Shown here piece by piece: positions 3,271 through 49,433 of a stretch of 64,000 nt of DNA (position 1 is the first letter of the stretch; each line of letters opens with the position of its first letter). A program made the position numbers and the translations under genes. The notes under the pieces are model-generated. The model ran no database searches. It had not been told where the DNA came from and saw only the letters and a list, made by a program, of their open reading frames with translations. The DNA comes from a virus. Taxonomy: Duplodnaviria; Caudoviricetes. The stretch covers positions 1 to 64,000 of IMG/VR virus record IMGVR_UViG_3300031088_000782. One strand, given 5' to 3'.

Positions 3271-3325
3271 TATGAAACCTTTTCTTTTTCGCAATTCTCT
3301 ACTGTTTAATTATATCAAATAACAC

Positions 3326-5170: not shown

Positions 5171-5254
5171 AATATCCCCTTTTCTTTTAATCTCTATATA
5201 AAATATCTTACCAAAAGTTGCGGAAAAATTTAAAAAATACGAATAAAAGCACAC

Positions 5255-20810: not shown

Positions 20811-20848
20811 GTAGTTATTGAACATTTACACGATGATTGGAGAAAATA

Positions 20849-23389
20849 ATGACATTTCAGGGATTGTCTAAGGGCGATAAGAACTACTCAAGCGTTACTG
20901 ACCTTATGGTTGGACGTTCTTCTGGTCGAACTATCAAGATGAGAATGAATCTTGAAGATCAGGGTGCTCTTATGAACAAACTGACTGACATGTACGATAA
21001 GCCTATTACTGCAAGTGTGCGAGAGGTTCTGTCTAACGCTATTGATGCAACTGTATCTCTGATGAGTAAGGGTCATAAAGTAAATCCTGTTGAAGTCAGT
21101 ATGCCTTCTGTAATGTCTCCTGAATTTGTTGTAACTGATCATGGCATTGGAATGTCTGAAGATGACATTGAAAATCATTTTGCTGTTTTTGGTGGTTCTG
21201 AAAAGAAATCAGACTTTCAGCAAATTGGAGCTTATGGGCTTGGTGCCAAATCTCCGCTTGCTTATTGTGATCAGTTTTCTTTCGAAACAACTAAGGATGG
21301 AGTGACTTGTAAGGTTCTCGTTATTCGTTCTGAAAGAGGCCCGGAAACTCAAATTTTGTCTGTTGAAAATACTGGTAACGAGTCTGGAACTACTGTGCGA
21401 ATTCCTCTCAATTCTTCTGATGGAAGCGATCAAGCTATTGATATTTCCAGCTTCAATCAGGCTATTCAGTCATACAAAGATTTCTCTTTTGATGTTCCCG
21501 TTGTCATCAATGGTGTTGAATATTTTGGAAATCCTAACTATATTGAGCTTGGCACTGTTGAGATTGAATCCGACTCTAACACTCAGGGGCGTTTTTGGAT
21601 TACACACGAATGTCTTCTCAAAGTTTTGGGTGAAACTGGATATTATTCTCGTTTCAGTAACATTCATTCTTATGTCCTTTCAGGATATAGATACGATTCT
21701 GTTATGAGTAGTCCTTATGTTGAATCTAAAGATGTTATTGTCGAACTGAAGCCTGGTGTCGTTGATTTTATTTCGTCTCGTGATGGAATTACAAAAAACA
21801 ACCGTTCCATTGCTCTTGACAATCACATTAACGATGTTCTTAACAATAAAAAAGAATTCATTCTTAATGGAACGATTTCTGGAATTAAAGCTGGAAAATT
21901 TAGTAAGTATGAGACTTACAAGATTTTTGAAGCTCTGAATCCACAGATCTCTTCTGACGAAGATAAAGTGACTATTGAAAATGAAATTTTTGATTTTTCA
22001 GATTTCGATTCACCTGATGGATACAACTTTCTTAAAGAAAATGCGAAATTCTCTCATGAAAGTATTCATTCTGTTCTAAGGGTCAATGAAAGCTCTACTT
22101 ACTCGAATAGTCGCAATATTCTTACGCCTGTCAAGTCGGGAAATTTTTCAACATATTTCAAAGCTCCTTACAACTATTCAGGAAAAGTCAATGACCTTAT
22201 CAATGATGTTATAACAAACCTTAATCTTTCTGATAGAGAAGATAACAGAAGTGTGAGATTAGTTGATTGTGCAAGGGTTGTAAATGAATCATCTGGTGAA
22301 ATCTATTTTGTTTCTGGAATGAATAATGAAAAAGACATTAAAGCAGTCATTCGTCAACGTAAAGAAATTGCTTCATCTAGAGAATCTACTCTTATCATCA
22401 TGACACAAGATGATAAATTTTCAGACGAAGAGATTGAGGCTTTTCTTAACAAAGTTGATTCTGACATTCATTCCAAGATTAATTGGGTTGATGTTGAATT
22501 TTTTAAGAAGATTGCAAAAGAGAAGCGAAACAATTCTGTTTCTGTTTCGAAGGATTCAACTCCTTATGCAAGGATCTGGGCTTTTTCAGATGGTTTCGAT
22601 TCATCGGAAGAGATTGTTAATGGAGAAGTAAAAGATTCTTCTAAGAAAAACAATTCTTACCTTGGAAAAACAGATCTTAATACTGTTTATGGAGAAAATG
22701 CACTGATTATCGCTTCAGAGGGCGGAAGTAGTCGTAATGTTGTTTTCGACCTTTTGAATGGATATCAGCACATTAAGGGATTTGATGCTCTGAAAAATAG
22801 ACCTGTTTATGTTGTTGCTCAACTTTTGAAGAATTCGGTTCTGTCTCTCGTGAATTCGGGAGAAGAAGTTATTCGTGACAAATCTATCAGACACGCAAGC
22901 AAAGATGCCGAAGAGAAGCTTAATTCTCTTCCAACTTATTCTCGCTCTGTTGAGGATGATAGGCTTAACCTTGCCTCGGATGAAAGCTTGATCGCTAAAT
23001 ATGTGCAGTCAAAGCTGGGCGGATACTGCGATACAGTCAACCAAAGATTGCAGTCACTTGCGTCTTTTGGCAGTGATTCAAATTCTGTTGAAAATATTGA
23101 CAAAATGAAAAACTTTATTGACAGTGTTGATTACAAGTCTAATCTTTTGCAAGTTCCCGAAGTTTCTGTTGAATATATTGCGACTAGAGGCGGACTTGAT
23201 GGATTGATCAGAAAAGTTGAAATTCTTGAAAAGGTAAGCATGATGGGACGATACAGTTATGATCAAAAAATCAAAGAGTTTGTTTCTAGCATGGCTCTTC
23301 TGCTTAACATGAAAGAAGGAGAATCAGCTATCCCTGATTATTTGAAGCAATCTCTGGTGAAGTTCATTAATGATGAGCTTGCCTTGTGA
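20849..23389 (+). CDS. GHKL (HSP90-like) ATPase, T4 rIIA-like
   Basis: VREVLSNAIDA, DHGIGMS, FGGSEK, IGAYGLGAKSPLAY, GTTVRIP. Confidence 0.8.
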   Translation: MTFQGLSKGDKNYSSVTDLMVGRSSGRTIKMRMNLEDQGALMNKLTDMYDKPITASVREVLSNAIDATVSLMSKGHKVNPVEVSMPSVMSPEFVVTDHGIGMSEDDIENHFAVFGGSEKKSDFQQIGAYGLGAKSPLAYCDQFSFETTKDGVTCKVLVIRSERGPETQILSVENTGNESGTTVRIPLNSSDGSDQAIDISSFNQAIQSYKDFSFDVPVVINGVEYFGNPNYIELGTVEIESDSNTQGRFWITHECLLKVLGETGYYSRFSNIHSYVLSGYRYDSVMSSPYVESKDVIVELKPGVVDFISSRDGITKNNRSIALDNHINDVLNNKKEFILNGTISGIKAGKFSKYETYKIFEALNPQISSDEDKVTIENEIFDFSDFDSPDGYNFLKENAKFSHESIHSVLRVNESSTYSNSRNILTPVKSGNFSTYFKAPYNYSGKVNDLINDVITNLNLSDREDNRSVRLVDCARVVNESSGEIYFVSGMNNEKDIKAVIRQRKEIASSRESTLIIMTQDDKFSDEEIEAFLNKVDSDIHSKINWVDVEFFKKIAKEKRNNSVSVSKDSTPYARIWAFSDGFDSSEEIVNGEVKDSSKKNNSYLGKTDLNTVYGENALIIASEGGSSRNVVFDLLNGYQHIKGFDALKNRPVYVVAQLLKNSVLSLVNSGEEVIRDKSIRHASKDAEEKLNSLPTYSRSVEDDRLNLASDESLIAKYVQSKLGGYCDTVNQRLQSLASFGSDSNSVENIDKMKNFIDSVDYKSNLLQVPEVSVEYIATRGGLDGLIRKVEILEKVSMMGRYSYDQKIKEFVSSMALLLNMKEGESAIPDYLKQSLVKFINDELAL

Positions 23390-23891: not shown

Positions 23892-24986
23892 ATGACAGTT
23901 ATTGAGCCTTTGGTTCCTAAGTTTGACAATATTGAGGTAAATAAAGTTGATTTGCCTTACAGAAACGAGTCTTATCTTCGTTTTTCTTATTCAGATCCTA
24001 TGTTGGAGGGATATGAAGTTACAGTTATTGCTGATTCTGTTCCAGTAGGCAGTGAATTTAAGAATGGTGATGAAGAGGGGGAGCGTTTATTAACAATTTC
24101 AGCAAGATTCCCACGTTGCATCCTTTCGGAAGTAAACACTCACAGGGTTTTTTCAAGAAATTCAGCTTCTTCTCGTGCTCGTTCAGTTAAAGCCACTATT
24201 GGTGACATTATGCGTAAGCCTTATATTCCTTTGTTCACTAAAAACAAAAAAGGTATGAGCGGAGAATTTTTAACTGCTGCTGAAAGAGAATTAGCTGTCA
24301 AGGCTTGGCTTTTGGGGCGAGACTCGGCTGTTGTTTCTGAACTTCGGCTTTTATTGGGTGATTTACTTACTCCAAGCGGAACTATCACTGAAATTGCATC
24401 AAATTATGCATCTCACATTGACCGCTATTACAAGGAAGTTTATGAAGCTGAGATTATGCCTGTTGAAGCTATTTCTGTTCATAAACAAAATGCTAATCGA
24501 GTAATTGAGCCTTATATGTGGCATGAAGCTATTGTCACTTCGTCTTATTGGGAAAATTTTGTTGAATTGCGAACAGACTTGGAAGCTGCTCAACCTGAAA
24601 TTGTTGCTTTGTGTCGTTTGATTGAAAAAGCTTTGGAAGTTTCTCGGCCTTCGCAAACTTGGTTGCACCTTCCATTTATCGAAGATTCCGAAAAACCTGA
24701 ATCCTTTGATAATTTTGCGAATATTCGTGATTTGTTGCTTCTTTCTGCAACTGAGTCAGCACAGGTTTCTTATCGTGACAAATCAAGAGCAGATAAGTCG
24801 ACTGCGACTACTCGCTTAGGTGAGCGGTTACTGAAGATGCGCCATTTGAGTCCTTTTGAGCACGTTGCTTTCTCTTCGGATGCCTACCACAATAATTCTG
24901 AGGAGATCTTACCGCGAGGAAATGTCTTGCGGAGTAATTTGGATGATAACTGGGTTCAGCTTCGTCCAATTTTGACAGCTATGTGA
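23892..24986 (+). CDS. thyX: Flavin-dependent thymidylate synthase (ThyX/Thy1), phage type
   Basis: FPRCILSEVNTHRVFSRNSASSRA, HKQNANRVIEP, HLSPFEH. Confidence 0.85.
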   Translation: MTVIEPLVPKFDNIEVNKVDLPYRNESYLRFSYSDPMLEGYEVTVIADSVPVGSEFKNGDEEGERLLTISARFPRCILSEVNTHRVFSRNSASSRARSVKATIGDIMRKPYIPLFTKNKKGMSGEFLTAAERELAVKAWLLGRDSAVVSELRLLLGDLLTPSGTITEIASNYASHIDRYYKEVYEAEIMPVEAISVHKQNANRVIEPYMWHEAIVTSSYWENFVELRTDLEAAQPEIVALCRLIEKALEVSRPSQTWLHLPFIEDSEKPESFDNFANIRDLLLLSATESAQVSYRDKSRADKSTATTRLGERLLKMRHLSPFEHVAFSSDAYHNNSEEILPRGNVLRSNLDDNWVQLRPILTAM

Positions 24987-25001
24987 AAACTGTCAAACAT
25001 G

Positions 25002-25033
25002 GAGGGGTAGAGAAAAATCATTCTCTACCCCTC
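25002..25033 (+). terminator. Intrinsic terminator
   Basis: GAGGGGTAGAGAA / TTCTCTACCCCTC. Confidence 0.7.
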
Positions 25034-25091
25034 TTTCGTGGATATTTTTCTATGAATACCTATTAATATTAATGCAAAGGTTTGATAAAGA

Positions 25092-25718
25092 ATGAGTGAA
25101 TTGCTTGAAAAGTCCCCTGTGAGACGTTTTTGGAGTAAAGACGTGATTCTGTTCTCTACTATGCTCCTATCGGCTCTATCATGCCTTGTAGCATCTCTTG
25201 TGTTGTCGATTGATGCTGTCAAGCTAGCTTCTGACCCCACCGCGAATCTCTCCTGTGATATCAACGCAATAGTAAGCTGTGGAACTGTTGCCTTATCAGA
25301 TCAAGCTCAGATTTTCGGATTTCCTAATTCTTTTCTGGGACTTATCTGTGAACCTATTGTCATTATGATTGCTGTTGCTGGCTTATCAGGCGTAAAGTTT
25401 CCAAGATGGATGCTCACAGCTGCTCAAAGTGTTTATTTCATCGGTTTCGTCTTTGCATTGTGGCTGTTCTATCAATCTGCTTTTGTTATTGAAGCTTTCT
25501 GTCCTTGGTGCTTATTAGTGACTGTTGGGACAACTTTAACCTTCTTCACACTGTTGAGATATAACATTATTCATGACAGAATTTTCCTTCCTAAAAGATT
25601 GTCAAATTTTGCTAAAACTGCTGTAAGCTTGAGGATAGATAGCGGGTTGGCTGTTATTGTTTTGATGGTTTTTGCTTTCGTTATATTCTACAATTATGGA
25701 TTCTCAATGTTTGGCTAG
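25092..25718 (+). CDS. Vitamin K epoxide reductase (VKOR) family membrane protein
   Basis: SCDINAIVSCGTV..S.QA.IFGFPN and CPWC redox motif; several TM segments. Confidence 0.9.
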   Translation: MSELLEKSPVRRFWSKDVILFSTMLLSALSCLVASLVLSIDAVKLASDPTANLSCDINAIVSCGTVALSDQAQIFGFPNSFLGLICEPIVIMIAVAGLSGVKFPRWMLTAAQSVYFIGFVFALWLFYQSAFVIEAFCPWCLLVTVGTTLTFFTLLRYNIIHDRIFLPKRLSNFAKTAVSLRIDSGLAVIVLMVFAFVIFYNYGFSMFG

Positions 25719-26926: not shown

Positions 26927-27523
26927 GTGTTCTCATCGACTTGGATTAACACTCACGGCTCTCAACATGAGGTCAATGAAGCGATACTGTGGGCTGATGT
27001 CGAATCATCTGGAACTACCCCTGAAGTTGACACACTTTTGGAACTTGGAGCCGTTATTTCTGATATGTCAGGGAACAGAATAAGCTCAACATGGGAGACA
27101 CTGTTTGAAATACCTGATTTGTCAAGAATTATAGCAAACTCCAGTAATGATGTTCAAAGATTACATGATAATTCAGGTTTATGGCAGGACTTGTGGAGCA
27201 AAGAGACAAAAACATATGCAGAAGCTGATTCTGATTTTTCTGACTTTATATTATCTTCTGTTCCTGAGAATACCTTGCTTTATTTCGGTGGAAATTCAAT
27301 TACTTTAGATAGGCTTTTTATTCGAATGCATATGCCTAAAACTTATTCTCTTATTTCGTATCGCTCTATTGATGTGACTTCCCTCTCTATGACGTTACAA
27401 TCAAATACTTCAATCCCTGGATTTAATAAAGGAAAAGATCATAGAGGATTGAAAGATGCTTTAGATTCATTAGAGGAATATAATTATTATTTAAATTGTT
27501 TGAAAAAGATTAATAAAAATTAG
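26927..27523 (+). CDS. orn: Oligoribonuclease (DEDDh exonuclease)
   Basis: LWADVESSG, LLELGAVISD, GNSITLDRLF, YRSIDVTSL, HRGLKD. Confidence 0.85.
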   Translation: MFSSTWINTHGSQHEVNEAILWADVESSGTTPEVDTLLELGAVISDMSGNRISSTWETLFEIPDLSRIIANSSNDVQRLHDNSGLWQDLWSKETKTYAEADSDFSDFILSSVPENTLLYFGGNSITLDRLFIRMHMPKTYSLISYRSIDVTSLSMTLQSNTSIPGFNKGKDHRGLKDALDSLEEYNYYLNCLKKINKN

Positions 27524-27590
27524 TGAATAAAGTTGATAAGATTAAATAACGGTTAGAAAAATCGGTTTCATTGAAGGAGAAATTAGTTAA

Positions 27591-27857
27591 ATGAGTGAAG
27601 TAACAGTATATAGCAAACCTAATTGCGGAAATTGTGATAAGACATATACCCTTTTGGGGAACCTTGATGTTGATTATAATAGTGTCGACATTTCAAAAGA
27701 TAAAGAGGCTTTGAAGAAAATCAAGGCTATGGGCTTCAGAGAAGCACCAGTTGTCGTTGTTGGTAAAGATTCATGGGGTGGATTCAACGAAGATAAGATT
27801 CGTGAACATTTTGATCCTAATCACAGCAATAATGATGATGACACATGGGATTTCTAA
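27591..27857 (+). CDS. nrdH: NrdH-redoxin with C-terminal DDDTWDF extension
   Basis: VTVYSKPNCGNC, GFREAPVV, WGGF. Confidence 0.9.
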   Translation: MSEVTVYSKPNCGNCDKTYTLLGNLDVDYNSVDISKDKEALKKIKAMGFREAPVVVVGKDSWGGFNEDKIREHFDPNHSNNDDDTWDF

Positions 27858-27874
27858 GCTGTTGAGAAAAATCG

Positions 27875-27920
27875 AAAGTGAGAGACATGAGACTGTTTTG
27901 GTGCTCATGTCTCTCACTTT
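27875..27920 (+). terminator. Intrinsic terminator
   Basis: AAAGTGAGAGACATGAG / CTCATGTCTCTCACTTT plus T tract. Confidence 0.8.
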
Positions 27921-28027
27921 TTTGTTAGAATATATGATATATAATGTTGTTCTCATAAAACAAATGAGGTATAGATTAAAGACTTAGATTTAAAAGACAG
28001 AGTAGATGTTGAGGGGTAGCTTTAGTT

Positions 28028-29779
28028 ATGAAAAAAATTTACGCCAGAAAATGCGAAGTAAAAACAATTTCTAAGGATTTAGGAAGTGTTTTTATCGAAG
28101 AAAACCACACTCAAAAAGCAAGCAAAGCTTCTGCAAGTGTTTATATTGGAATCTTTTTTCAAGACAACCTTTTAGGCGTATGTATGTTTAGCAATCCCCG
28201 AACGACAAAAAAGAAAAAAGAATATTCAAGAGAACTACTTCGTTTATGCTTCAAAAAAGATACACAAGTTATTGGTGGGGCATCTAAATTGATTAAATAT
28301 TATATAAAAAATTATAACCCTGTAGATTTTTTTACATATCAGGATACAACTGGAGAGAATTCTGATGTATATGAAAGATCAGGAATGAAAATGGTAAAAG
28401 ACGGAATTAAAACAAAGAAACAATACATGGTTGCTCCTGGAAAAAACATGTCAACAGCAAATCGAAAAGAAGCTTTAAGTATGGCTTATGCTGTTAAATA
28501 TGGCCCAGACAGAATTCTTGGAACAAAAATAGGTGAAGTATTCGAAGAAAATGGAAAAAGAAAGTCCAATAGGAATATTTTCATAGAAGAATTAGGTTGG
28601 CATATAGAAGAGACAACAGGCGATTCTATATATGAGTGGACAAACCCAAATATATCTTTTTATGTTTATAAGATAACATCCAAATTAGATAATGGTTATT
28701 ATATTGGAAGAAGAAAAATAAACATAAAAAATGCAACCATACAGGAATGTATAAATGACAAGTATATGGGAAGCGGAGGTGTTAAATTTAAAAACTGGAT
28801 AAACAATATAGGAAAAGAAAATCTCGAAAAAGAAATTATGTGGATTGTAAATACAAAAAAAGAAGCAATCGCAAAAGAAGAAAAAGAAATAGGAGATTTG
28901 TATAAAACAGACGTGAATTGCAAAAATTCTCATAAAGGAGGGCTAGGCAAAAACGCTTCCAATTGGTCTGATTTATTTACAACAGGAAATTGTAGCGTTC
29001 ACGGTGAAACAAAATTTTTTGCATCTTATTGTTGCGCCTGCAGAAATCAAAAAACAGTCACTATAAAGATGTGTGACATTCATGGCGAAACAAAACACCA
29101 AGGAGGATCTTGTTCAAAATGCTCTTCTGAAAAAACTTTTCATATAAAAAAATGTATTATTCATGGGGATACAATGTTTGCAGGAAATGAATGTAGAAAG
29201 TGCTCGATTGATAAATCTTGGAGCATAATGTTTTGTGACATTCATGGGGAAACAAAACACCAATCAGGAAAATGCAAAAAATGTTCTATTGGAAAGAATA
29301 TAAATATTAAATTTTGTGACATTCATGGGGAGACTACATTCTATGGTGAATCATGTAGAAAATGCCAGGTGGATAAAAGTCTTAATGATAAAATATGTGC
29401 TATTCATGGAAAGACTAAGCATAGAGGCAATCAATGCTGCAAATGTGCATCAAAAGAAAAAGACGCAATTAAATTTTGCAAAATTCATGGTGAAACAAAA
29501 TTTCAATATAGCAAATGTATTTTATGCATAAAAGACAAAAGAGATTCATTAAAAGAATGTCCTACTCATGGGTTAGTTAAGCACAGGGGTGAAAATTGTT
29601 ATACTTGTACTATAGAAAAAGCAAACGCAATTAAATTTTGTGACATTCACGGTGAAACAAAATTTAGAGGAAATAATTGTTGTAAATGTTCTTCTGAAAA
29701 GGCCGCTCACAAAAGATTCCATGTAAAATTAAACACGAAGAAAAAAGATTGTAGGTTTTGTTTAAATTATGAAAAATGA
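28028..29779 (+). CDS. GNAT-like domain + GIY-YIG (Seg-like) endonuclease + 9 Zn-ribbon repeats
   Basis: FYVYKIT...YYIGRR...YMGSG; N-terminus aligns with the C-terminal domain of 3326-5170; 3' end overlaps the dnaG start. Confidence 0.8.
   Translation: MKKIYARKCEVKTISKDLGSVFIEENHTQKASKASASVYIGIFFQDNLLGVCMFSNPRTTKKKKEYSRELLRLCFKKDTQVIGGASKLIKYYIKNYNPVDFFTYQDTTGENSDVYERSGMKMVKDGIKTKKQYMVAPGKNMSTANRKEALSMAYAVKYGPDRILGTKIGEVFEENGKRKSNRNIFIEELGWHIEETTGDSIYEWTNPNISFYVYKITSKLDNGYYIGRRKINIKNATIQECINDKYMGSGGVKFKNWINNIGKENLEKEIMWIVNTKKEAIAKEEKEIGDLYKTDVNCKNSHKGGLGKNASNWSDLFTTGNCSVHGETKFFASYCCACRNQKTVTIKMCDIHGETKHQGGSCSKCSSEKTFHIKKCIIHGDTMFAGNECRKCSIDKSWSIMFCDIHGETKHQSGKCKKCSIGKNINIKFCDIHGETTFYGESCRKCQVDKSLNDKICAIHGKTKHRGNQCCKCASKEKDAIKFCKIHGETKFQYSKCILCIKDKRDSLKECPTHGLVKHRGENCYTCTIEKANAIKFCDIHGETKFRGNNCCKCSSEKAAHKRFHVKLNTKKKDCRFCLNYEK
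28991..29719 (+). repeat. Nine tandem 81-bp (27-aa) CxxH-x9-CxxC coding repeats
   Basis: First Cys codons at 28991 and 29639 are exactly 8 x 81 nt apart; consensus IKFCDIHGETK(F/H)xGxxCxKCxxxK. Confidence 0.9.
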
Positions 29780-31655
29780 TTTCAAAAGCTTAGTTGCTGA
29801 AGTGAAATTGGCATACAATATTGTTGATTATATTCAGCAGTCAGGGATCAAGCTTCAACAGAGAGGCATGAAGCATAAAGGCTTGTGCCCATTTCACAAC
29901 GAAAAAACGCCTTCTTTCACTGTTGATGAAAACTATCAGAATTTTAGATGTTTCGGTTGCGGAGCTGCAGGCGATCTGATGAATTTTGTTATGAGACAAG
30001 AAAGTCTTGATTTTTTTGAAGCTTTGAAGAAACTTGCTGAAGATAAAGGAATCGAAGTTGAGATTGATGGGGATAATTCTTCATCTGTTGATTACAAGTC
30101 ACTTCGTGCCTGCATAAAGACAGCTGCTAATTTCTTCGTTGCAGAGTTCAGGAAATTAGATAATGATCATGTGGCAAAGAAAGAAGTTTCGAACCGTGGA
30201 TTGTCTATCAATGGAAAAATGCTTTATGGGTATGCTCCCGAAGGCCGACAGACCTTGTTTAATTTTCTTAAAGGACAGGGGTTCAGCGAAGAAACTATTG
30301 TAATGACTGGGGTGTGCGGAAAATCAGAAAAAGGGAATTTCTATGATTTCTGGCAGGGGCGCTTGATGTTCTTTATCACAGATATCACAGGTAAGCCTAT
30401 TGGTTTTTCTGGTCGAAAACTCTATGATACTGACAATAGAGGAAAATATGTAAACTCTTCTGATACGCCTTTGTTTGATAAAAGTGCATCTCTTTATCAT
30501 GTTGACAAGGCAAAGAAAACCGCTTCTGACGAGAAAGAAATGTTTGTTGTTGAAGGTCAGTTTGATGTTTCTTCTTTTGTTGAGGCTGGTTTGAAAAACG
30601 TTGTTGCATCTTCAGGAACTGCTTTCACAGAAAAACAAGGGATGATGATTCGCCGTCTTGTTTCTGAGAGCGGACGAATTGTGTTTGCGTTTGACGGTGA
30701 CAGTGCTGGTGTTGCAGCTGCTGTTAAAGTTTTCAAAAACGTTCCTGGTATCCATGATCAATCTTATGTTGTGTCTTTTCCTGATGATCAAGACCCCTGC
30801 GACTACAGATTAGAAAATGGTTCAGAAGAACTTGTAGAATATGTGAAAAACAATGCAAAGCCGATGATTGAGTTTATTTTGGAAGCGACTGCTGATGATT
30901 ATGATCTTGATTCTACTCTTGGTAGGTCTCGTTATGTTGATGCTGCATGTAGGGTTCTCAAAACAATTTCAAGTGCATCTCTTCGTGAAGTCTTTTTGAA
31001 GAAAGTTTCTTTGGATTCTTTCACTTCTGTTGAAGCTGTTCGTGAAGTTCTCGTAAAAGCCGATCCCATTGAAACTTATTCATCTTTTTCTGGTAACAAT
31101 GAGGATAAAGAACATAGAGAAAGACCTGATTTGGATGAGGGATCTGTTATTGATCAAGATGAGATTTTAGTTAAGATTAAAAAGGATTCAACATATAATG
31201 TCACTGCCCGTTTTATTTCTCTTTGTTTTATGCAGAAGAAGTTTATTCCTTATCTGATTAAGGCTCAAAGTATTATTCCATCTGAAATGTCTTCTATTGT
31301 TGATGACTTGAAAGAATTGAATTACACTGAGACTTTGGTTCCTGAACAGTTCCAATTGTCAAAAGTTGTTTCAGCTTTGTTCAATGCTAATTTCTTTCCG
31401 CTTGCACATATGATGACTTTTGCAGATCAGAAAGATCAATTCATTTATCTTCGAAATTATTTGTATAAGAGAGAGATGAGTGCTAATAAGAATCGCATTC
31501 GTTCAAAAATTTCAAGAATTATTGAACAATCTAATAATACTGATGTTGATTTCTTGGAGAGGGCTTTAATGAAAGAAGAACAGGAGTTGCAGAAACTCAA
31601 ATCATCACATCATGAAAACACAGATAGTTCAGAGAGTGAGATTGTTGAACAATAG
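29769..31655 (+). CDS. dnaG: DNA primase
   Basis: CHC2 Zn finger CPFH..KTPSF..CFGC; GKYVNS; TOPRIM VEGQFD and FDGD. Confidence 0.96.
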   Translation: MKNDFKSLVAEVKLAYNIVDYIQQSGIKLQQRGMKHKGLCPFHNEKTPSFTVDENYQNFRCFGCGAAGDLMNFVMRQESLDFFEALKKLAEDKGIEVEIDGDNSSSVDYKSLRACIKTAANFFVAEFRKLDNDHVAKKEVSNRGLSINGKMLYGYAPEGRQTLFNFLKGQGFSEETIVMTGVCGKSEKGNFYDFWQGRLMFFITDITGKPIGFSGRKLYDTDNRGKYVNSSDTPLFDKSASLYHVDKAKKTASDEKEMFVVEGQFDVSSFVEAGLKNVVASSGTAFTEKQGMMIRRLVSESGRIVFAFDGDSAGVAAAVKVFKNVPGIHDQSYVVSFPDDQDPCDYRLENGSEELVEYVKNNAKPMIEFILEATADDYDLDSTLGRSRYVDAACRVLKTISSASLREVFLKKVSLDSFTSVEAVREVLVKADPIETYSSFSGNNEDKEHRERPDLDEGSVIDQDEILVKIKKDSTYNVTARFISLCFMQKKFIPYLIKAQSIIPSEMSSIVDDLKELNYTETLVPEQFQLSKVVSALFNANFFPLAHMMTFADQKDQFIYLRNYLYKREMSANKNRIRSKISRIIEQSNNTDVDFLERALMKEEQELQKLKSSHHENTDSSESEIVEQ

Positions 31656-34260: not shown

Positions 34261-34360
34261 TGCTATATGAGATATTGATATAGGCACAGCTGAAATGTTA
34301 GATGCTGTGTCTATATTTCTTTAATCGAACATATAGCAAAAGAGTTTGGTGGTTTGTGTA

Positions 34361-36781
34361 ATGTTATTTCTTTCTTCTGAAGATAAGGATGATGACAACA
34401 ATAAAGGGTTTGTCGGACTCCTTGTTGTGCTGTCAATAATCTTTCTCCCCGCTTTCATTCTCGGATGGGGTTATTATAGTTTGATTCGGTTTTTCAAACA
34501 GCGTTTTTCCGTAATAGCTACTGTTGTCCTCTTTGTTGATTTGATTGCTGTGCTCTACGGATTCTTGTCTCATGCAGTAGAAAGAGCTTTAGGTGTTTTT
34601 GCCAATCTTTTCCAAATTCAAAATTTATGGACTGATTTGATACCTTTTGCTATTGTTTTCAATATTATTTTAGGTGGATTTTTTGGATTATTGCTAGTGT
34701 TTATACAAATACAGCAGATTAAAGCTAGCCCTTATAAACTTAAATTTAAGGGAACATGGCTTTATGAATTCAAGTTTAGAAGAACACCTTTACAATATTT
34801 CCGAAAGAAAAAAATTATTGAAGGTTTAAAAGAAGGTAAATATTCATCACCTGAAAAAGCACCACTAGGATTAGATGAAAACAATGGCGATGTTGTTGCA
34901 TCAATGTATGGTTCAGAGAGTGGTAAGCCTACGTTGATCTCAGGAGCAGCAGGTTCAGGAAAAACTATTACTATGCTTTCAATGATTCACAATAATATTA
35001 AAAATGGGAAACCCTCTGTTGTGATTGATTTCAAGCGAAGTCCAGAACTTTCTTCAAAACTTGCGTCTTGGGCAAAAGAAAACAACAGAAAATTTTATCA
35101 TTTTGTGAACGGAGACCCTGATAGATATGATGTTAAAGATTCTCCTGGTCAAGCTTGTTATGACGCTTTGATTAACGGTGATGCATCTAAGGCAGACATG
35201 GTTTTGGGAATGCGAGAATATGATGTTGCGGCTGAAGTCTATAAATCTAGTATGCGTCAGTTACTACAAGTTCTTTTCTCTATGCTGAAGTATGCAGATA
35301 AAAGTAAGGCTCCAAATGTTGATTGGGATCATGGTGAACTTTATCAAGTTGCCTCTTCAATCACTGGTGGTAATTTTACGGATCTTGTTGGGGCTTGTGA
35401 AGGAACAATTATTCAAGCTAGTGCTGAGGAAGTTGAGATTGGGTTACGTAGCAGAACTTCTAGTTTGCATAAGGCTATGGAGGAACTGCGAGGTCAGATG
35501 AGAACTATCATTTCGTCCGAGTATGGGCGTTGGTTAAAAACTGAAAAAGGCGGAAGGAATATTGACCTTTATAAACTTACGTCTGAATCAGATAGTGATA
35601 GCGTTATTCTATTCTCTCTTAACTCTGATTCTGAGAAAGACTTTTCAAAATATTTGGGATCTTTAATCCTAGCAGATTTGAGTGCAGTATCTGCTAAGCG
35701 CAGAAATAATGGCATTAAGAATCAAATAAGTGTTTATGTTGATGAGTTCCAAGCTGTTCCCCCTACAGCCGTTACAAGCCTTTTGGAAAAATCTCGTGAA
35801 TCCAAAATGGGCATGACTCTTTCCAGTCAGTCTTATGAACAGATTGTTGCAGCTTCTGATAACAATGGTGAAGCTTATTTGATCAGTATTATGGATACTT
35901 GTTCTAACTTCATAGTCCATAACGGTGCTACTGAAAAGTCTGCTGTAAGATTGGCTGAAATTATTGGTAAAGATTTCGAAACTGTTTATTCAGCTTCTAA
36001 TCAGAATGATGGTTTCTTATTCTCTATCAATTGGTTTAATAAGAGGAATCAGATTGTGAAAACAGACGAAGAGGAAAGATGGATCGTACATCCTAAAGAA
36101 TTCATGTCTTTGTCTTCTCCAAGTGAAAATAATGGTTATAAATCTACTGCTGTTATCATTAACAAATCACCTGATGATCCTTTGTTTAAAAATAACGCAG
36201 GCGGTGCTGTTGCTAGACATGTTTGGATGATTCCTAATCAAGAAGTAATCAATGATTATTATATTCCTAAATTAGCTTCTGATGACAGTTACGATGAAAC
36301 CGACCTTCCGCCAGCTCTAGTTGAACTTACTGGTAAAGGGCATAATTCTATTCTTGAAGAACAGGAAGCTCCAAGAGATTATCTTTCTGAAAGACTTGAT
36401 GGACATCGCTCAACAGATTCTATTGTTGAAGAATACGATTATTCAGGTATGGAAGATGAAGATCTTGACGGATCTTTTGGATTTGAAACTATTGAAGAAG
36501 ATGAGGATGACAGCTTCAAAGATGTTCAAAGCATAGATTATCGGAAGGTCATGAATCAAAGAAAAACAAACAATGATGATCTTTTTGAATCTGCTCGACC
36601 AAAAACGAGAAGATCAGCCATTGAATCTGCTTCTTTTGAAAGCTTATTCAATTCAGAGGCAACTCCTGATTTGGTGAGACGTAAAGAATCACCAAAGAGC
36701 AGACTACCCAAAAAACCAGACCCAATTGAGGAAGACCTTTATGAAGAGGAAGCTCTGCCCGATATAGAGGAACTTATGTGA
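34361..36781 (+). CDS. Type IV coupling protein (VirD4/TraD-like)
   Basis: N-terminal TMs, Walker A GAAGSGKT, Walker B YVDEF, EKSRESKMGMTLSSQS; acidic tail. Confidence 0.88.
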   Translation: MLFLSSEDKDDDNNKGFVGLLVVLSIIFLPAFILGWGYYSLIRFFKQRFSVIATVVLFVDLIAVLYGFLSHAVERALGVFANLFQIQNLWTDLIPFAIVFNIILGGFFGLLLVFIQIQQIKASPYKLKFKGTWLYEFKFRRTPLQYFRKKKIIEGLKEGKYSSPEKAPLGLDENNGDVVASMYGSESGKPTLISGAAGSGKTITMLSMIHNNIKNGKPSVVIDFKRSPELSSKLASWAKENNRKFYHFVNGDPDRYDVKDSPGQACYDALINGDASKADMVLGMREYDVAAEVYKSSMRQLLQVLFSMLKYADKSKAPNVDWDHGELYQVASSITGGNFTDLVGACEGTIIQASAEEVEIGLRSRTSSLHKAMEELRGQMRTIISSEYGRWLKTEKGGRNIDLYKLTSESDSDSVILFSLNSDSEKDFSKYLGSLILADLSAVSAKRRNNGIKNQISVYVDEFQAVPPTAVTSLLEKSRESKMGMTLSSQSYEQIVAASDNNGEAYLISIMDTCSNFIVHNGATEKSAVRLAEIIGKDFETVYSASNQNDGFLFSINWFNKRNQIVKTDEEERWIVHPKEFMSLSSPSENNGYKSTAVIINKSPDDPLFKNNAGGAVARHVWMIPNQEVINDYYIPKLASDDSYDETDLPPALVELTGKGHNSILEEQEAPRDYLSERLDGHRSTDSIVEEYDYSGMEDEDLDGSFGFETIEEDEDDSFKDVQSIDYRKVMNQRKTNNDDLFESARPKTRRSAIESASFESLFNSEATPDLVRRKESPKSRLPKKPDPIEEDLYEEEALPDIEELM

Positions 36782-36842
36782 TTTCAGACCGTGATTGATA
36801 TTCTCAATAGTATATGTATGATAATTTGTATGGGAGCTTTAA

Positions 36843-38780
36843 ATGCCAATTCCTAAGAATGCTTCACCAGGAGGAAACTCTAACAGGGGTAACGATTCGA
36901 ACAGAGGTCCGGGTGGAAATCCTCCTCGAAATAACCCTAATCGTTCAAATAACCCTAATATTCCACGCAGACCGCCTGCTGGTGGTAATCAGTCACCTTC
37001 AGTGCCTCATTCCCCGCAAAGAGGGAATGGTAACGCAAGGCAAAATCCTGCAAGGTCAGGACAAAACCCAAATCAAGATCCACGTCAGGCAAGACGTCCA
37101 CAGCAGTTACCGCAGAATAATCCTCCGGTAAGAGGTCAAGGCCCAAGACAATCCACTGCTCAGGCTTCTCATTACGTAGATGACGAATTGGGTTTTGAGG
37201 AAAATCAATCAAATCAGGTTCCTTCCCAAGAAGGCAGAAGAAGACCTCCAAGCTCTCACGTTGAGCAGTATGACTATGATGAACGTTCTTTTGATAATAC
37301 ACCTAATCCCTCTCCAAGAGAAAATTATCAGCGTCCAAATCGATCTTACCCTCAAGACGATCAAGAGAGAGAAGTTCGTGAACCTTTTGTCAATGAATTT
37401 GATGAATATGAAGATGAAACATTCAGCCCTATTTCTATTGATGAACAGTTAAGAATAGAAGATGAAGAAGACAATCGTTCATCAAATAATTCTCGTAATC
37501 GTTCACGTAGAGATGAGGAAGTTTCTTATGAGCCTTCTCCCTTAGATGATTATGAAGATGACGAGGAAAAAGAAGTTTCGGTTCCCCAAAAAGCTCCTAA
37601 GTCAAAGCCTAAAAAAGTAAAGAAAAACCGTAAAGATAAAAAAGGGCAAGATGTTTTTATTGATGAGAAAAAAGGTGTTGTAAAACCTTTCGGTGGAAGA
37701 AAAATTAAAGAGAATGAATTTGATAAGAGAAAGAACATTCGTAAAAACGCAATCGTCATTCAATGGGTTGTTATCAGTCTTATCGTTATTCTTGTCGGAT
37801 TAGGTGTGAAAAATGCTGTTGTTCCGCCAAAAACTCTTGATGAACAAGAAGTAGCTGACATTGCTGCAGTTACAACTGGTGTGACAAATTATCCATTAGA
37901 AAAAGGAAAAGGTTTCGCAACTGATTTCATGAAGGCTTACCTTACTATTAACAATGATGAGGTCGCTTCAAAAGTGTTGGGATACTACTATTCTGGAAGC
38001 TTAACTGTTGAGGATGATAATAGTAACAAAGAGGCAACCAGTAATTACAAACAGACTATCCTTTATGGCCCAACTGTTTATGATTCTTTCGCTTTCAATG
38101 ACTACTCAGCTCGTTATACAATAGGATCTTTGGTCAAGCCAGGAGCAGTAGAGGGTAAAGCTTCAGGAGTAGATCCTCATTGGGTATTCTTTAATGTTAA
38201 TGTATATTACAATTCCGCAGCTGATTCATTTACTATTACTGATGATTCACCAACAGTTGTTCCTTCAGCTGAAGTAGGAAATATTGCGGACCTTCCTGAA
38301 CGACAAGTTTTGGGCACAGGCGAAGCAGATCAAGGTATTGGAGAATCTATCAAATCTGTTGTATTCGGATTCTTACAAGGCTATGCTGAATCTTCTCCTG
38401 CAGATCATTCAAGTCTTGATCAATACATTACTGACTCAAAAGACTCGGAACTAATAAAAGGATTAGACGGAGAATATGAATTCTCAGGAGAAATGAATGA
38501 CGCAGTTCAATTTGAAGCTTTCCCTGTTGATGAATCAGAAAGCCCAACTGAGATAAAAGCTCTTACGAAAGTAAGATGGGCCAACAAAGTTAAGGTTTCA
38601 GATCAAGAAACACGAGTTGATTATACCTCCACTTATGTTATGACTCTTCAAAAAGTTGGAGATAAATATTTGGTATCAAAATTCCAACCACAATATTACG
38701 CCTCTGAGGAAGCCGAGAAGCCTGTTGTTCCTGACTATGAAGAAGATCCAGCCACAGATACTTCTATCGAAGAAGAGTGA
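36843..38780 (+). CDS. TcpC/VirB8-like conjugation protein with long disordered N-terminus
   Basis: P/N/Q/R-rich N-terminus, single TM, FATDFMKAYLT and two NTF2-like halves. Confidence 0.7.
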   Translation: MPIPKNASPGGNSNRGNDSNRGPGGNPPRNNPNRSNNPNIPRRPPAGGNQSPSVPHSPQRGNGNARQNPARSGQNPNQDPRQARRPQQLPQNNPPVRGQGPRQSTAQASHYVDDELGFEENQSNQVPSQEGRRRPPSSHVEQYDYDERSFDNTPNPSPRENYQRPNRSYPQDDQEREVREPFVNEFDEYEDETFSPISIDEQLRIEDEEDNRSSNNSRNRSRRDEEVSYEPSPLDDYEDDEEKEVSVPQKAPKSKPKKVKKNRKDKKGQDVFIDEKKGVVKPFGGRKIKENEFDKRKNIRKNAIVIQWVVISLIVILVGLGVKNAVVPPKTLDEQEVADIAAVTTGVTNYPLEKGKGFATDFMKAYLTINNDEVASKVLGYYYSGSLTVEDDNSNKEATSNYKQTILYGPTVYDSFAFNDYSARYTIGSLVKPGAVEGKASGVDPHWVFFNVNVYYNSAADSFTITDDSPTVVPSAEVGNIADLPERQVLGTGEADQGIGESIKSVVFGFLQGYAESSPADHSSLDQYITDSKDSELIKGLDGEYEFSGEMNDAVQFEAFPVDESESPTEIKALTKVRWANKVKVSDQETRVDYTSTYVMTLQKVGDKYLVSKFQPQYYASEEAEKPVVPDYEEDPATDTSIEEE

Positions 38781-45715: not shown

Positions 45716-48700
45716 TTGATGAGTAAAAGACTTGATTCTTCTTATATAGAGAATGAGAATAAAATAAATGCCGCTATGGTGAATAACCGAAAGGCTCCTT
45801 TTGCTGTCGCAATTTCAGCATCTCTTGCTTTTGCTGTACTTATGATGATGTTCCAACCATTCTTAATGACTTTATTCAAAAATGATTCTACAACACAAAA
45901 CAACAGTATAGTAACAACTAACTCTACTCTTGCTGAAGCCGGTGAACCAGGATGGTTCTGCAGTGATAAATTCGGCGGAGGAATGAATTCTAAATCAACT
46001 TGGGAAGGCCCATTAGACATTAAAGTATATCCTGAAAAGGGAAGCCGAGAGGTCACTATTCAAGAAGCTTTAGGTGCTGGTTTAGCATTTGTCACTTATG
46101 ACGGCGAAGGCGAAGCCAAAGATCGCATGTTTGTTAAGGGAAAAGAAAAACCAAAACCTGGTGATAAAGTTTTCGGCAGCAGTGAAGCTAAATTTGACAA
46201 ACTCTTTGAAAAGAATAAATCAAAATTAGAAAAGGAAAGAACTCTTGGTAAATGTTTGGGCGGAGTCTTTGTTCCTAACATAGCAAATGCTGTTATGTGG
46301 GTTTCAAGTAGTGTGACAAAAATTGCTCAGTTTACAGCTGTTATGGTATTCAACGGTAATTTGATCTGCGAAAAACCAGGTAAGGGTGGAGCGTGTTTGG
46401 ATCTTATCGGAATTATTGGTGGTAAAGGTTCAAGTGACGGAGGAATTATTGGTGTTCTTACATCAAGCATCTACTACCCTCTGTTGATTATAGCTGTAGC
46501 GATCACAGGTTTGTGGGTCTTGAAGAGAGGTCTTGTTGACAGGAAGCTTCGAGAATCCTTATTTGGCGCATTATGGATGTGCTTGTCGGTGATTATAGGT
46601 CTTGCATTGTTGTTGAATCCACTTCTTATCACTAAAGCTCCAATGGCTGTTTCAAATGTCGTTTCAACATGTGTTATTGGGGCTTTTAATGGTAAAAACT
46701 GTTTTGACTCAAGCGGTGGAAATTCTGTCAAATATGAAGATGGAGATTCAACTTCTGAAAAAGTTTGCCGAAGCAGTTCAGATCAGGCAAGTATTAATGA
46801 ACAAATGACATTCACTACTTCATCTATTACTTGTAGTATTTGGCGAGCATTCATTCTTGAGCCATATGCACAGGGTTCTTTTGGAACTTCATTCAATGAT
46901 CTTGATGTCAAAGCTAATCCACAATTGAATAAATTGATTAAAGATCAGGGGCTTGATCCTAACATTTTCTGTGTTAATCTTGCAACTACAAAATCTTTGG
47001 ATTCTATGAATGGTAAATACATTCAATTGAATAGTACCAAAAACAAGGTATGCAACCTTGCAGCTTACCAAATGTATTTGAAGACACAAGCAACAACAAG
47101 TGGCGATAAGAACGTCTCTGATGTGGATTACAAATGGTACAGAGTTATCATGGTAGCAGCTGCTGATGAGGGATTGTGGGCTAACTGGACTAACACAGCA
47201 GGATCTGCATTCAATAAAATGACAGTTTCAAGCATTTCTCTGTTTGCATCAGGATTGGGAACATTTATTATTTTCATTACATCAATTTTTGCTCTTGTTT
47301 ATTACATTTCCTCAATCCTACTTATGGCTTTTGCTCCAGTATTCTTCTTAATGGGTGTTCATCCCGGTAGAGGAAAGAGGATTCTTTTGGGATGGCTTGA
47401 AAAAGTTATTTCAAATGTTCTGAAATATATGGCTTCTGCGGTGTTCCTTATTGTTACTATCTCGATTTATGGTGGAATTCTGTCATCTATCAGCAATATT
47501 GGATTAACTTTGATTTTCATTATCATCGTTACTATGGCTTTGTTTATGTATCGCTCTGAACTTATTGATTTAATAGGAAGGGCAAATATGGGAGGAGAGA
47601 AGATTTCTAGCTCTCTTTCTGAGAAGCTTGGTAACTCCACTAAGGGTGCCTTGAAGTTTGCTGGTTCAACTGCGGTTGCTGGAGCTGGTGGTGTTGCTGG
47701 CGCAGCTTTGACAAGCGATGGAATGAAGGTTAGCAATCCATTCAAGAAGGGTGGGTTCGAAGAACTTAGGAAAAACAGCAGTGAGCTTCGAAAAGACATG
47801 TCTGCTGGCTTTAAAGATGGTATTAAACGTGAAACTAAGCGTAATCCAGGATTCATTGGAAATGTTGCTCGACAATATGACCGTAACACTGTTGACAACA
47901 AGCAAGACTTGAGAAGCAAGAGGGATCGTGCTGCTGAAGCTGAAGAAGCTGCGGAGAAAGCATATAATGAGAAACGTGATGATTACCAAGAAGTCTTGGA
48001 CAGACAATCCAAGTTCAATTTTGACTCTAATGCGGATAAAGCAGATTTGAAATCTCTTGAAGACAGCCATGAGAACATTAAGAATGTAGAGAATAAAACC
48101 CTTAATGATTTCAGGGGCAAGGCTGACAGAAATTATGCTCAAGAAAAACAAAGAATTGACAGATCTGATATGCTTGATGAAGACAGAATAAAACATCTTA
48201 ACAATATTGCTATCCAAAGAGATGAAAGCCATAATTTTGCTCAACTTCAAGAATTAGTCAACGCTATGCGAGACAATAAGATTCAACTTGACGTAGCAGT
48301 TCGAACAGGTAATGTTGATGAGCAGAATAGACTTAAATCTGAAATTAATTCTCAACAAAGTCAAGCAGGTGAGCTTCGTTCAAAGATTTCTGAAAGAAAT
48401 TACAACCGATTCACAAGAGAATATGGTAATGCCATGAACACTCAAAGAGACATTGGTGCTATTGACACTCTTGATGATGATATGAAGAACGATTTGGCAA
48501 CAAAGAGAGCAGCAGCTTTAACTTACGAAGATAGACGCAATGAAATTGCTCAACAGCTTAACTACGCAGAAAATGAGTTGTCTGAAGCTGAGGCAAGACT
48601 TGACAAAGAGAGTCTAGCTAGCAAGCTATATGATGAAAAGTATATTGGTCATCGTCCAGGTGAGGGATTGAACGACAAGAAAGTCAACAAGATTGAAAAA

Positions 48701-49360
48701 GAGCTGAAGCAACATCAGAATGTCTATAATGACAGAAGGGATAGAGAAATTGCTGCGAATCAAGAAAAGTATGAGAAAACTGTGAATGGAGAAAATGAAT
48801 CACAATCATCTAATTCTTCATCTGGTTCATCAAGAGGGTCGAACAATGAAAACTATTTTGATAAAAATGATGTTGATTTAGTCGAAAAACAGGATATTCG
48901 TCAAATTGTGACTCCACCTAAACCTAGTTCTTCTCCGACAAACCATTTGCCAGATAAGCCTAGCTCTGCTCCAACTAATCATATTCCAAATAAGCCGACT
49001 AAAGCACCAACTAATCATTTGCCACCTAAACCTACTAAGGAACCGGACGCACATAAAATTCCACCTAAGCCTACTAACTTACCTTCTGCTCCAAGAGGGC
49101 AAGATGCAGATAACGTTAGAAGGGCTGAAGCCAGAATTAATAAGGATGACAGTTTTTCAAGAAAAGACAGCAGTAAATCCAACTTTGAAAACAAATTGTC
49201 AAACAAAGAAAACGACAAAGGCAGCGGTAAAGGCGGAAATGGAAACAGGGGAAGCAATTCGTTAGCAGATATTGCCAAACGAAGAGAAGAGATTAGAAAT
49301 AAAAATAACCCCAGTTCCCGACCTGATGACAATGGTAGCGGAAACGGGAATAAGTTCTGA
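45716..49360 (+). CDS. VirB6-like (TcpH/ConG-type) polytopic T4SS membrane protein with coiled-coil and Pro-rich tail
   Basis: Multiple TMs, FAPVFFLMGVHPGRGKRILLGWL, long charged C-terminus; position upstream of the VirB1-like hydrolase. Confidence 0.75.
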   Translation: MMSKRLDSSYIENENKINAAMVNNRKAPFAVAISASLAFAVLMMMFQPFLMTLFKNDSTTQNNSIVTTNSTLAEAGEPGWFCSDKFGGGMNSKSTWEGPLDIKVYPEKGSREVTIQEALGAGLAFVTYDGEGEAKDRMFVKGKEKPKPGDKVFGSSEAKFDKLFEKNKSKLEKERTLGKCLGGVFVPNIANAVMWVSSSVTKIAQFTAVMVFNGNLICEKPGKGGACLDLIGIIGGKGSSDGGIIGVLTSSIYYPLLIIAVAITGLWVLKRGLVDRKLRESLFGALWMCLSVIIGLALLLNPLLITKAPMAVSNVVSTCVIGAFNGKNCFDSSGGNSVKYEDGDSTSEKVCRSSSDQASINEQMTFTTSSITCSIWRAFILEPYAQGSFGTSFNDLDVKANPQLNKLIKDQGLDPNIFCVNLATTKSLDSMNGKYIQLNSTKNKVCNLAAYQMYLKTQATTSGDKNVSDVDYKWYRVIMVAAADEGLWANWTNTAGSAFNKMTVSSISLFASGLGTFIIFITSIFALVYYISSILLMAFAPVFFLMGVHPGRGKRILLGWLEKVISNVLKYMASAVFLIVTISIYGGILSSISNIGLTLIFIIIVTMALFMYRSELIDLIGRANMGGEKISSSLSEKLGNSTKGALKFAGSTAVAGAGGVAGAALTSDGMKVSNPFKKGGFEELRKNSSELRKDMSAGFKDGIKRETKRNPGFIGNVARQYDRNTVDNKQDLRSKRDRAAEAEEAAEKAYNEKRDDYQEVLDRQSKFNFDSNADKADLKSLEDSHENIKNVENKTLNDFRGKADRNYAQEKQRIDRSDMLDEDRIKHLNNIAIQRDESHNFAQLQELVNAMRDNKIQLDVAVRTGNVDEQNRLKSEINSQQSQAGELRSKISERNYNRFTREYGNAMNTQRDIGAIDTLDDDMKNDLATKRAAALTYEDRRNEIAQQLNYAENELSEAEARLDKESLASKLYDEKYIGHRPGEGLNDKKVNKIEKELKQHQNVYNDRRDREIAANQEKYEKTVNGENESQSSNSSSGSSRGSNNENYFDKNDVDLVEKQDIRQIVTPPKPSSSPTNHLPDKPSSAPTNHIPNKPTKAPTNHLPPKPTKEPDAHKIPPKPTNLPSAPRGQDADNVRRAEARINKDDSFSRKDSSKSNFENKLSNKENDKGSGKGGNGNRGSNSLADIAKRREEIRNKNNPSSRPDDNGSGNGNKF
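48912..49090 (+). repeat. Imperfect 33-bp (11-aa) Pro/Thr coding repeats
   Basis: PPKPSSSPTNH LPDKPSSAPTNH IPNKPTKAPTNH LPPKPTKEP... Confidence 0.7.
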
Positions 49361-49433
49361 AAGATGATTGAATTTTGAAAAATATTATTAAGATTAAACA
49401 ATCATCTTTCAGAACACAAAACAAGGAGTAAAA

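Follow-up and report, generated by a model that had tools for sequence, protein, structure and literature searches.

A small redoxin encoded by a giant bacterial mobile element ends in a near copy of the peptide through which NrdF, the β subunit of class Ib ribonucleotide reductase (RNR), binds the α subunit NrdE. The gene lies at 27591-27857 (+) in the first 64,000 nucleotides (nt; 64 kb, here the window) of the 309,534-bp IMG/VR record IMGVR_UViG_3300031088_000782, and its product, an NrdH-like protein of 88 amino acids (aa) plus stop, terminates in translation as ...EHFDPNHSNNDDDTWDF, the last seven residues being DDDTWDF. It seems about an even chance (a probability of roughly 0.5) that this tail docks in the NrdE cleft which receives the β tail and holds the reductant at the enzyme. 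Such a tethering is the best-supported reading at present, on comparative evidence together with one weak complex prediction.

The tail falls into two parts. Residues 75-88 lie beyond the NrdH-like fold, and in the AlphaFold2 model the confidence measure (predicted local distance difference test, pLDDT) falls there to 66 and then to 48. A linker at residues 75-81 (DPNHSNN; 27813-27833, +), predicted to be disordered from the pLDDT drop, varies in sequence and length among relatives and leads into the heptapeptide DDDTWDF (27834-27854, +), which has the extreme C-terminal, predicted-disordered position of an α-binding β-subunit peptide and fits the [DE]3-4-W-D-F form of the actinobacterial-type class Ib NrdF. 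Six of its seven residues are identical to the last residues of the element's own NrdF, whose heptapeptide DDDDWDF (5332-5352, −), read from the sequence and by comparison with NrdF homologues, is the α-binding tail. The initial annotation had remarked on both ends, namely an NrdH extending past its fold into a mimic of the NrdF tail and an NrdF finishing in ...EDMDDDDWDF, and both observations hold, with the fold ending at about residue 74 and the NrdF terminus confirmed in the gene at 5329-6333 (−). Across the 1134 open reading frames (ORFs) of at least 50 aa in the whole record a W-x-F C-terminus occurs just twice, in the NrdH-like protein and in NrdF, and, with amino-acid frequencies taken from the element itself, chance would give a DDDxWDF end at a rate of about 1e-8 per protein. 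The codons common to the two tails are identical in the element. WDF closes 105 of the 120 closest NrdF homologues, the remaining ends being mostly close variants such as WEF, WAF and WNF, and 118 keep an acidic W/F-x-F end. Judged from these comparisons the mimicry of the NrdF tail is real and not chance, and given its non-randomness and its conservation it is very probably functional.

Conservation of the tail is of a particular kind. Four relatives at 58-95% identity all end in DDDTWDF with linkers that differ (DPNHSNN, DENSETE, DTNNATE and SSQN). A profile search of 1.84 billion representative proteins, from which the best 150 matches were examined, gave 15 more clusters (at 50% identity) with a W-[DEN]-[FY] end and about ten others with ends of related form (..DDDIWN, ..DDVWA, ..SSIFDF); the search profile included the tail, so tailed proteins are enriched at the top of that list. 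In an alignment of 31 sequences the tail tryptophan is kept in at least 90%, the linker runs from about 5 to 40 residues, and representatives down to about 36% identity retain a tryptophan at −3 after acidic residues. The elements that bear the motif range from 31 to 60% GC, and their tail codons vary synonymously (ACA/ACC/ACT, GAT/GAC). Since the peptide is kept while the linker changes and the codons differ synonymously, the pattern is that of a short linear motif kept by purifying selection and carried at the end of a predicted disordered tether.

As far as the recovered loci go, the tail is a trait of one family of giant elements. The fetched contexts of tailed proteins all show the same or a closely related replication-gene neighbourhood, on contigs of up to 670 kb, and the order in most of these loci is ThyX, VKOR, two small genes, an RNase T-like exonuclease, NrdH, DnaG and a TraG-like ATPase. 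The exonuclease gene adjoins nrdH on its upstream side in nearly all related loci, two (L107 and L108) being without it. Typical NrdH had been said at the outset to lack such a tail, and the comparison set beforehand, of how common tails are in chromosomal NrdH, came out in agreement: at the loci of the nearest cellular nrdE genes, where 79 of 80 from species genomes have nrdH just upstream, none of the 79 NrdH proteins has an acidic or aromatic tail, and their ends are neutral and Ala/Val-rich. The same is so for all 80 metagenomic loci with the most similar NrdH-like genes, many of them beside NrdE and an NrdF ending in DWDF, and for all six cultured-phage NrdH-like proteins, several of which adjoin nrdI or an RNR gene. 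A search for relatives of the tailed NrdH among the IMG/VR viral contigs found none. Stenotrophomonas phage TPWB-10 was considered as a source of a tailed homologue and rejected, its tblastn match over residues 3-88 overrunning the annotated end of the coding sequence.

The redoxin to which the tail is attached appears to be a working one. It matches Pfam Glutaredoxin (PF00462, E 1.9e-13, residues 4-60), its best NCBIfam family is TIGR02194 NrdH at 73.0 bits, under the cut-off of 85.75 (YruB is next with 52 bits), and its closest solved relatives in the PDB are the NrdH redoxins of Mycobacterium tuberculosis, Corynebacterium and Escherichia coli, in alignments that cover residues 3-74 and stop at 71-74. 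The folded glutaredoxin-type domain takes up residues 1-74 (27591-27812, +), and the AlphaFold2 model, built on 31 relatives and with a pLDDT of about 81-87, places strands at 4-8, 29-33, 54-57 and 60-63 and helices at 13-24, 38-47 and 67-74, giving at residues 4-74 the β-α-β-α-β-β-α arrangement of the small glutaredoxin/thioredoxin fold found in NrdH-redoxins. A redox-active CxxC (C12-G-N-C15; 27624-27635, +) is present, and C12, C15, P53 and W62 are the sole invariant positions in the alignment of 31, Pro53 being at the usual cis-proline position. Retention of the CxxC and Pro53 argues for continued work as a redoxin and against the role of a decoy alone. Details of the active site depart from those of the aligned M. 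tuberculosis and Corynebacterium NrdH, with C-G-N-C in place of the canonical C-V-Q-C and W-G-G-F-N-E-D in place of the NrdH motif W-S-G-F-R-P-[DE], in which W62 and G64 are conserved and the R and P replaced. The gene shares a replicon with nrdE and nrdF and stands outside any nrdI-nrdE-nrdF operon. With a score below the curated cut-off, altered motifs and no operon linkage, the product is, on its sequence, best called NrdH-like. It is the only gene of glutaredoxin (Grx) or thioredoxin (Trx) fold in the element, neither a thioredoxin nor a second glutaredoxin-fold gene having been found in the record.

Expression signals around the gene are those of a free-standing protein. A Shine-Dalgarno-like GAAGGAG (27573-27579, +), read from the sequence, lies 11 nt 5' of the ATG, and an intrinsic-terminator-like hairpin with a T-run (27874-27927, +), found by RNA folding, closes the exonuclease-nrdH unit. 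This hairpin and its U-run, 16 nt 3' of the nrdH stop, fold at −30.5 kcal/mol (z = −5.9 against shuffles); a simple terminator scan did not report the hairpin, which direct folding of the RNA shows. The 88-aa ORF is thus not a fusion to an RNR subunit, as it has its own ribosome-binding site, stop and terminator and only seven NrdF-like residues.

The enzyme that the tail would address is also encoded by the element. Its class Ib NrdF, 334 aa, is at 5329-6333 (−) and is well supported by PF00268 (E 2.9e-89) and TIGR04171 (448.8 bits, above the cut-off of 355); read from the sequence, all six canonical metal ligands and the radical tyrosine are kept. A class Ib NrdE of 725 aa (TIGR04170, 1166 bits) is at 121104-123281 of the record and has a C-terminal redox pair in its ending, C-E-S-C-Q-L. 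The initial annotation's statement that nrdE and nrdI are absent is therefore right for the 64-kb window; in the record as a whole an NrdE is present, and no NrdI was found anywhere in its 309,534 bp. Presumably the NrdF relies on a host NrdI or on iron self-assembly. The nrdH-like gene lies 21 kb away from nrdF and 94 kb away from nrdE. Cells and cultured phages have nrdHIEF operons; here the three genes span more than 100 kb, and so NrdH, NrdF and NrdE appear as a set that is complete though dispersed. NrdE and a tailed NrdH are apparently on one contig in at least two relatives as well (135,859 and 670,635 bp, as judged by equal bp counts). Both NrdE and NrdF of the element share 70-75% identity with their counterparts in Actinomycetaceae, Micrococcaceae, Nocardia and related bacteria, and the ..D-W-D-F end of NrdF is found in the nearest cellular NrdF proteins too. 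The named kin (Varibaculum, Actinomyces, Schaalia, Boudabousia, Arthrobacter and Nocardia) are high-GC Actinomycetota, while the element has only 35% GC. In one related element (L106:1-3123) an NrdI stands beside an intein-bearing NrdF of 688 aa, 7-10 kb upstream of its nrdH.

In class I RNR the C-terminal CxxC of the α subunit is re-reduced by a redoxin after each turnover. The proposal is that an NrdH-type redoxin gained a flexible C-terminal extension ending in a copy of the NrdF distal peptide, that DDDTWDF would bind the hydrophobic β-tail cleft on NrdE, and that a leash of about 12 residues would then keep the redoxin near NrdE, whose C-terminal cysteines need it at every cycle. The target would be the element's own NrdE (725 aa, CESCQL) and probably also that of the host, because NrdF tails of the host type are the same. 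The local concentration of reductant would in this way be raised in an element with dispersed nrdH, nrdF and nrdE. Occupancy of the cleft by the redoxin tail would be transient, alternating with the β tail and not blocking it, because a single short peptide should bind more weakly than a dimeric NrdF with its longer contacts. Both the binding to the cleft and its kinetic benefit are what we infer from the comparisons above and from what is established for β tails. In Bacillus subtilis NrdEF about eight C-terminal residues of NrdF fill a hydrophobic NrdE cleft with high occupancy and serve as a flexible tether by which the NrdF core is suspended from it (PMC6572854). The distal β tail is anchored on the α surface in a mycobacterial class Ib complex (bioRxiv 10.64898/2026.06.02.729529). 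Seven C-terminal residues of R2 are needed, and are sufficient, for R1 binding, free peptide mimics inhibit RNR, and viral R1 has been purified on an F4 heptapeptide column (PMC2900304). The premise of the initial annotation, that the β C-terminus binds α and that free peptides of it inhibit, is as a general principle well documented (PMC2900304, PMC6572854).

A complex prediction for NrdE with the NrdH-like protein, which had been named as a check at the outset, was run and gave a score of 0.46 (runs of 0.46, 0.41 and 0.52), the highest of three controls scoring 0.02; the verdict of the tool is 'weak support'. The runs share at least 50% of contacts, and the pLDDT of the partner is at least 78. 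Of 80 solved complexes 58 reach the mark for the score, as do 2 of 110 mismatched pairs, and scores of 0.60 or under belong to only 7 of those solved complexes and to both mismatches, counts that hold only roughly here as our own alignments were used. Solved complexes of NrdE with the NrdF tail exist, and the pass may reflect a likeness to them.

Several points weigh against tethering. The prediction gave a score and no interface, so contact by the tail is not distinguished from contact by the redoxin domain. A net benefit from a peptide for the β cleft is an assumption, as such a peptide formally competes with NrdF and free R2 peptides inhibit RNR. The partner preference of the NrdH-like protein may differ from that of the NrdH proteins that have been studied, because its score is under the NrdH cut-off and CGNC and WGGFNE stand where CVQC and WSGFRP are canonical. 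Further, a tail-less NrdH, in effect a control provided by nature, exists in the same gene module (P0251; L104:4001-4249), where the protein ends right after the fold with TAA TAA TAA, and so in at least one lineage the tail is, by this reading of the locus, dispensable.

The same mimicry would serve a competitive regulator or inhibitor, in which the tail fills the β-tail cleft of NrdE (of the host, of the element or of both) mainly to exclude NrdF, whether to throttle or gate RNR, for example by the supply of reduced NrdH, or to suppress the host enzyme. Inhibition of RNR by free peptides from the R2 C-terminus is established (PMC2900304), and the NrdF tail is known to compete with other interfaces for the NrdE cleft (PMC6572854), so the idea has precedent. 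Its probability seems low all the same: a lone heptapeptide would from general knowledge be expected to bind far more weakly than a dimeric NrdF, W62 is invariant in all tailed relatives along with the CxxC and Pro53, and none of these is needed in a decoy. The initial annotation had offered tethering to NrdE and displacement of host NrdF side by side, and the former is the better supported, on comparative evidence and a weak complex prediction. Displacement of the host NrdF is not favoured because the CxxC and Pro53 would be needless for a pure decoy, because the tail cannot tell host NrdE from element NrdE (the tails of the element NrdF and of the nearest cellular NrdF being the same, host and self are not distinguishable by it), and because a resident element would gain little from blocking the host supply of deoxynucleoside triphosphates, the element here having its own complete NrdE and NrdF and conjugation genes typical of a resident element.

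Docking on another partner altogether is unlikely. The candidates would be a replisome component encoded alongside (the RNase T-like exonuclease or DnaG), in the style of the acidic tails of the single-stranded DNA-binding protein (SSB) or T7 gp2.5, or else a thioredoxin reductase. The gene order is what suggests it, as nrdH stands between the exonuclease gene and dnaG in most loci of the family and not beside RNR genes; acidic tails ending in Phe are generally known as a common docking device, and distant relatives end in ..DDDIWN, ..DDVWA or ..SDIWA, without the terminal Phe of NrdF. These leanings are set against a match to NrdF in six residues of seven that includes W-D-F, the different motif in which the element's SSB ends (..DDQPF), the absence of any further ORF in the element with a W-x-F end, and, as weak evidence, the drop of the complex score to 0.02 when an unrelated protein replaced NrdE. 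Mimicry of the SSB tail itself was tried and rejected, as D-D-D-T-W-D-F in the NrdH-like protein is unlike the D-D-D-[IL]-P-F type, with Pro at −2, that the SSB end D-D-Q-P-F recalls. Very improbable is a neutral relic, left from an ancestral redoxin::NrdF fusion or from recombination with the 3' end of nrdF. Grx::NrdB fusions exist (PMC6187632) and an internal deletion of such a fusion could leave a redoxin plus tail, the tail was lost in one lineage (L104), and the shared codons of the two tails in the element are the same. Yet such identity of codons would arise by chance at about 1 in 10 (a rough estimate from typical AT-rich codon usage, not a computed value), and the peptide has been kept to about 36-45% identity and over 31-60% GC despite the variable linker and the synonymous changes in its own codons.

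Tethering might also take a more ordered form, which we hold to be unlikely, in which the β-tail cleft is time-shared: after turnover the β tail would leave, the reductant would dock by its near-identical peptide and re-reduce the C-terminal α cysteines while these move out of the active site, and the cleft would then be returned. Were this so, the cleft would be a general docking hub for accessory proteins of RNR and not for β alone, with a hand-over mechanism encoded by motif mimicry. Co-variation of the NrdH and NrdF tails has been named as a possible, unverified hint of time-sharing. Rare NrdF tails, ..EDEWGSAFD and ..DDDWDDIEW (P0056, P0058), resemble the NrdH-like tails ..DDVWSGAF and ..DDDIWN (P0252, P0260, P0359). 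The unusual tails of the two proteins may co-vary. An NrdH ending in ..DDIWNF (P0271) and an NrdF ending in ..DDWNF (P0048) are from different samples and not from one element, and in L106, where NrdH ends in ..SSDIWA, the body of NrdF shares only about 56% identity with the unusually tailed NrdF variants, and the last 46 residues of this NrdF are off the locus.

How a redoxin gains access to the C-terminal cysteines of class I RNR, which are mobile, is to our knowledge still poorly understood, and likewise how reduction is coordinated with β binding in the asymmetric α2β2 complex. A natural redoxin with a β docking peptide would offer a simple genetic handle on both. It would exemplify how one partner of an enzyme can mimic a short linear motif of another, here on a bacterial mobile element, and the tethering would achieve without a covalent bond what the known Grx::RNR fusions do with one. 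In mycobacteria the class Ib β-tail cleft is a proposed drug target, and for this reason a natural protein ligand of the cleft would be of interest to that field; the heptapeptide EDDDWDF of M. tuberculosis is reportedly an R2-derived inhibitor of RNR.

No published description of a redoxin with a β-subunit-like tail was found in literature searches, and comparison is with four known kinds of system. The solved NrdH redoxins (E. coli 1H75, C. ammoniagenes 1R7H, M. tuberculosis 4F2I/4HS1 and C. glutamicum 4FIW) have the fold, the CxxC and the W-x-G-F region seen here and resemble the NrdH-like protein also in co-occurring with class Ib NrdE and NrdF. However they, and 165 natural NrdH or NrdH-like proteins (79 chromosomal, 80 metagenomic and 6 phage), stop shortly after the last helix, whereas the present protein adds a linker predicted to be disordered and the NrdF heptapeptide, and its gene is not in a nrdHIEF operon. 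In the Grx::RNR fusions the reductant is attached to the holoenzyme, as in Grx::ATP-cone::NrdB of Facklamia ignava, Grx::NrdB of Francisella and viruses and Grx::NrdE of Streptococcus pneumoniae (PMC6187632). Fusions of Grx to NrdA, NrdB, NrdD, NrdE or NrdJ are found in bacteria and in 24 viruses, and when fused to NrdB the Grx domain reduces RNR efficiently (PMC6187632). In the Grx::NrdB fusions the redoxin reaches α via the C-terminal tail of β. These fusions are covalent and to a whole subunit, in contrast to a seven-residue peptide on a free-standing redoxin, for which the proposed attachment would be reversible, would involve no covalent bond and would compete with β. The R2 peptide inhibitors, such as mammalian FTLDADF and YAGAVVNDL of herpes simplex virus (HSV), are like the NrdH-like tail near-identical to a β C-terminus and expected in the same α cleft (PMC2900304), but they are synthetic and free, whereas the tail is natural, encoded and attached to a predicted electron donor. 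Finally, the acidic C-terminal tip of SSB (..DDDIPF) shares the scheme of a disordered linker with a portable acidic docking motif that ends in Phe, but has [IL]-P-F where the NrdH-like tail has W-D-F, and the latter would be modelled on NrdF and not on SSB.

The element itself looks, because of the conjugation genes in the window, like a giant conjugative or plasmid-like element and not a lytic phage, and the 'provirus' class that IMG/VR gives the record is doubtful on its gene content. The products in the window include a TraG/TrwB-like coupling ATPase, TcpC, a TrbL/VirB6-like protein of 1214 aa, a T2SSE-family ATPase and a cell-wall hydrolase with a lysozyme domain, the conjugation-type genes being at 34346-38780, 45716-51128 and 61461-63998. 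The conserved neighbours of nrdH are an RNase T/DnaQ-family exonuclease gene upstream (26927-27523, +; PF00929) and a DnaG primase gene downstream (29769-31655, +; Pfam Zn_ribbon_DnaG, DNAG_N and Toprim). Between nrdH and dnaG is an ORF of 583 aa (28028-29779, +) whose N-terminus is Mom-like and which also has a GIY-YIG region of SegE type and some ten Cys-rich units in tandem, of the form C-x-I-H-G-E-T-K-F ... C-x-K-C. A gene of about 580 aa is at this position also in L004 and L005, with none in L003, L002, L006 or L008, and because it is present only in some related loci the ORF behaves like a mobile insertion of homing-endonuclease type that separates nrdH from dnaG. Upstream of nrdH, at 23892-25718 (+), a divergent ThyX-like gene (364 aa, with a short Pfam Thy1 match only) is followed by one for a VKOR-family membrane protein (208 aa), a pair conserved in most related elements, and an 850-aa GHKL (HATPase_c_3) ATPase upstream of ThyX (20837-23389, +) is conserved in related elements too. 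Beside nrdF, an ORF of 642 aa (3326-5254, −) contains DUF723/treble-clef zinc-finger repeats and may be another homing-endonuclease-like gene next to an RNR gene. An ORF of 498 aa (1798-3294, −) has the NPPY motif of N6-adenine methyltransferases (..VGNPPYIRI..) and may encode a type II or IIG restriction-modification enzyme.

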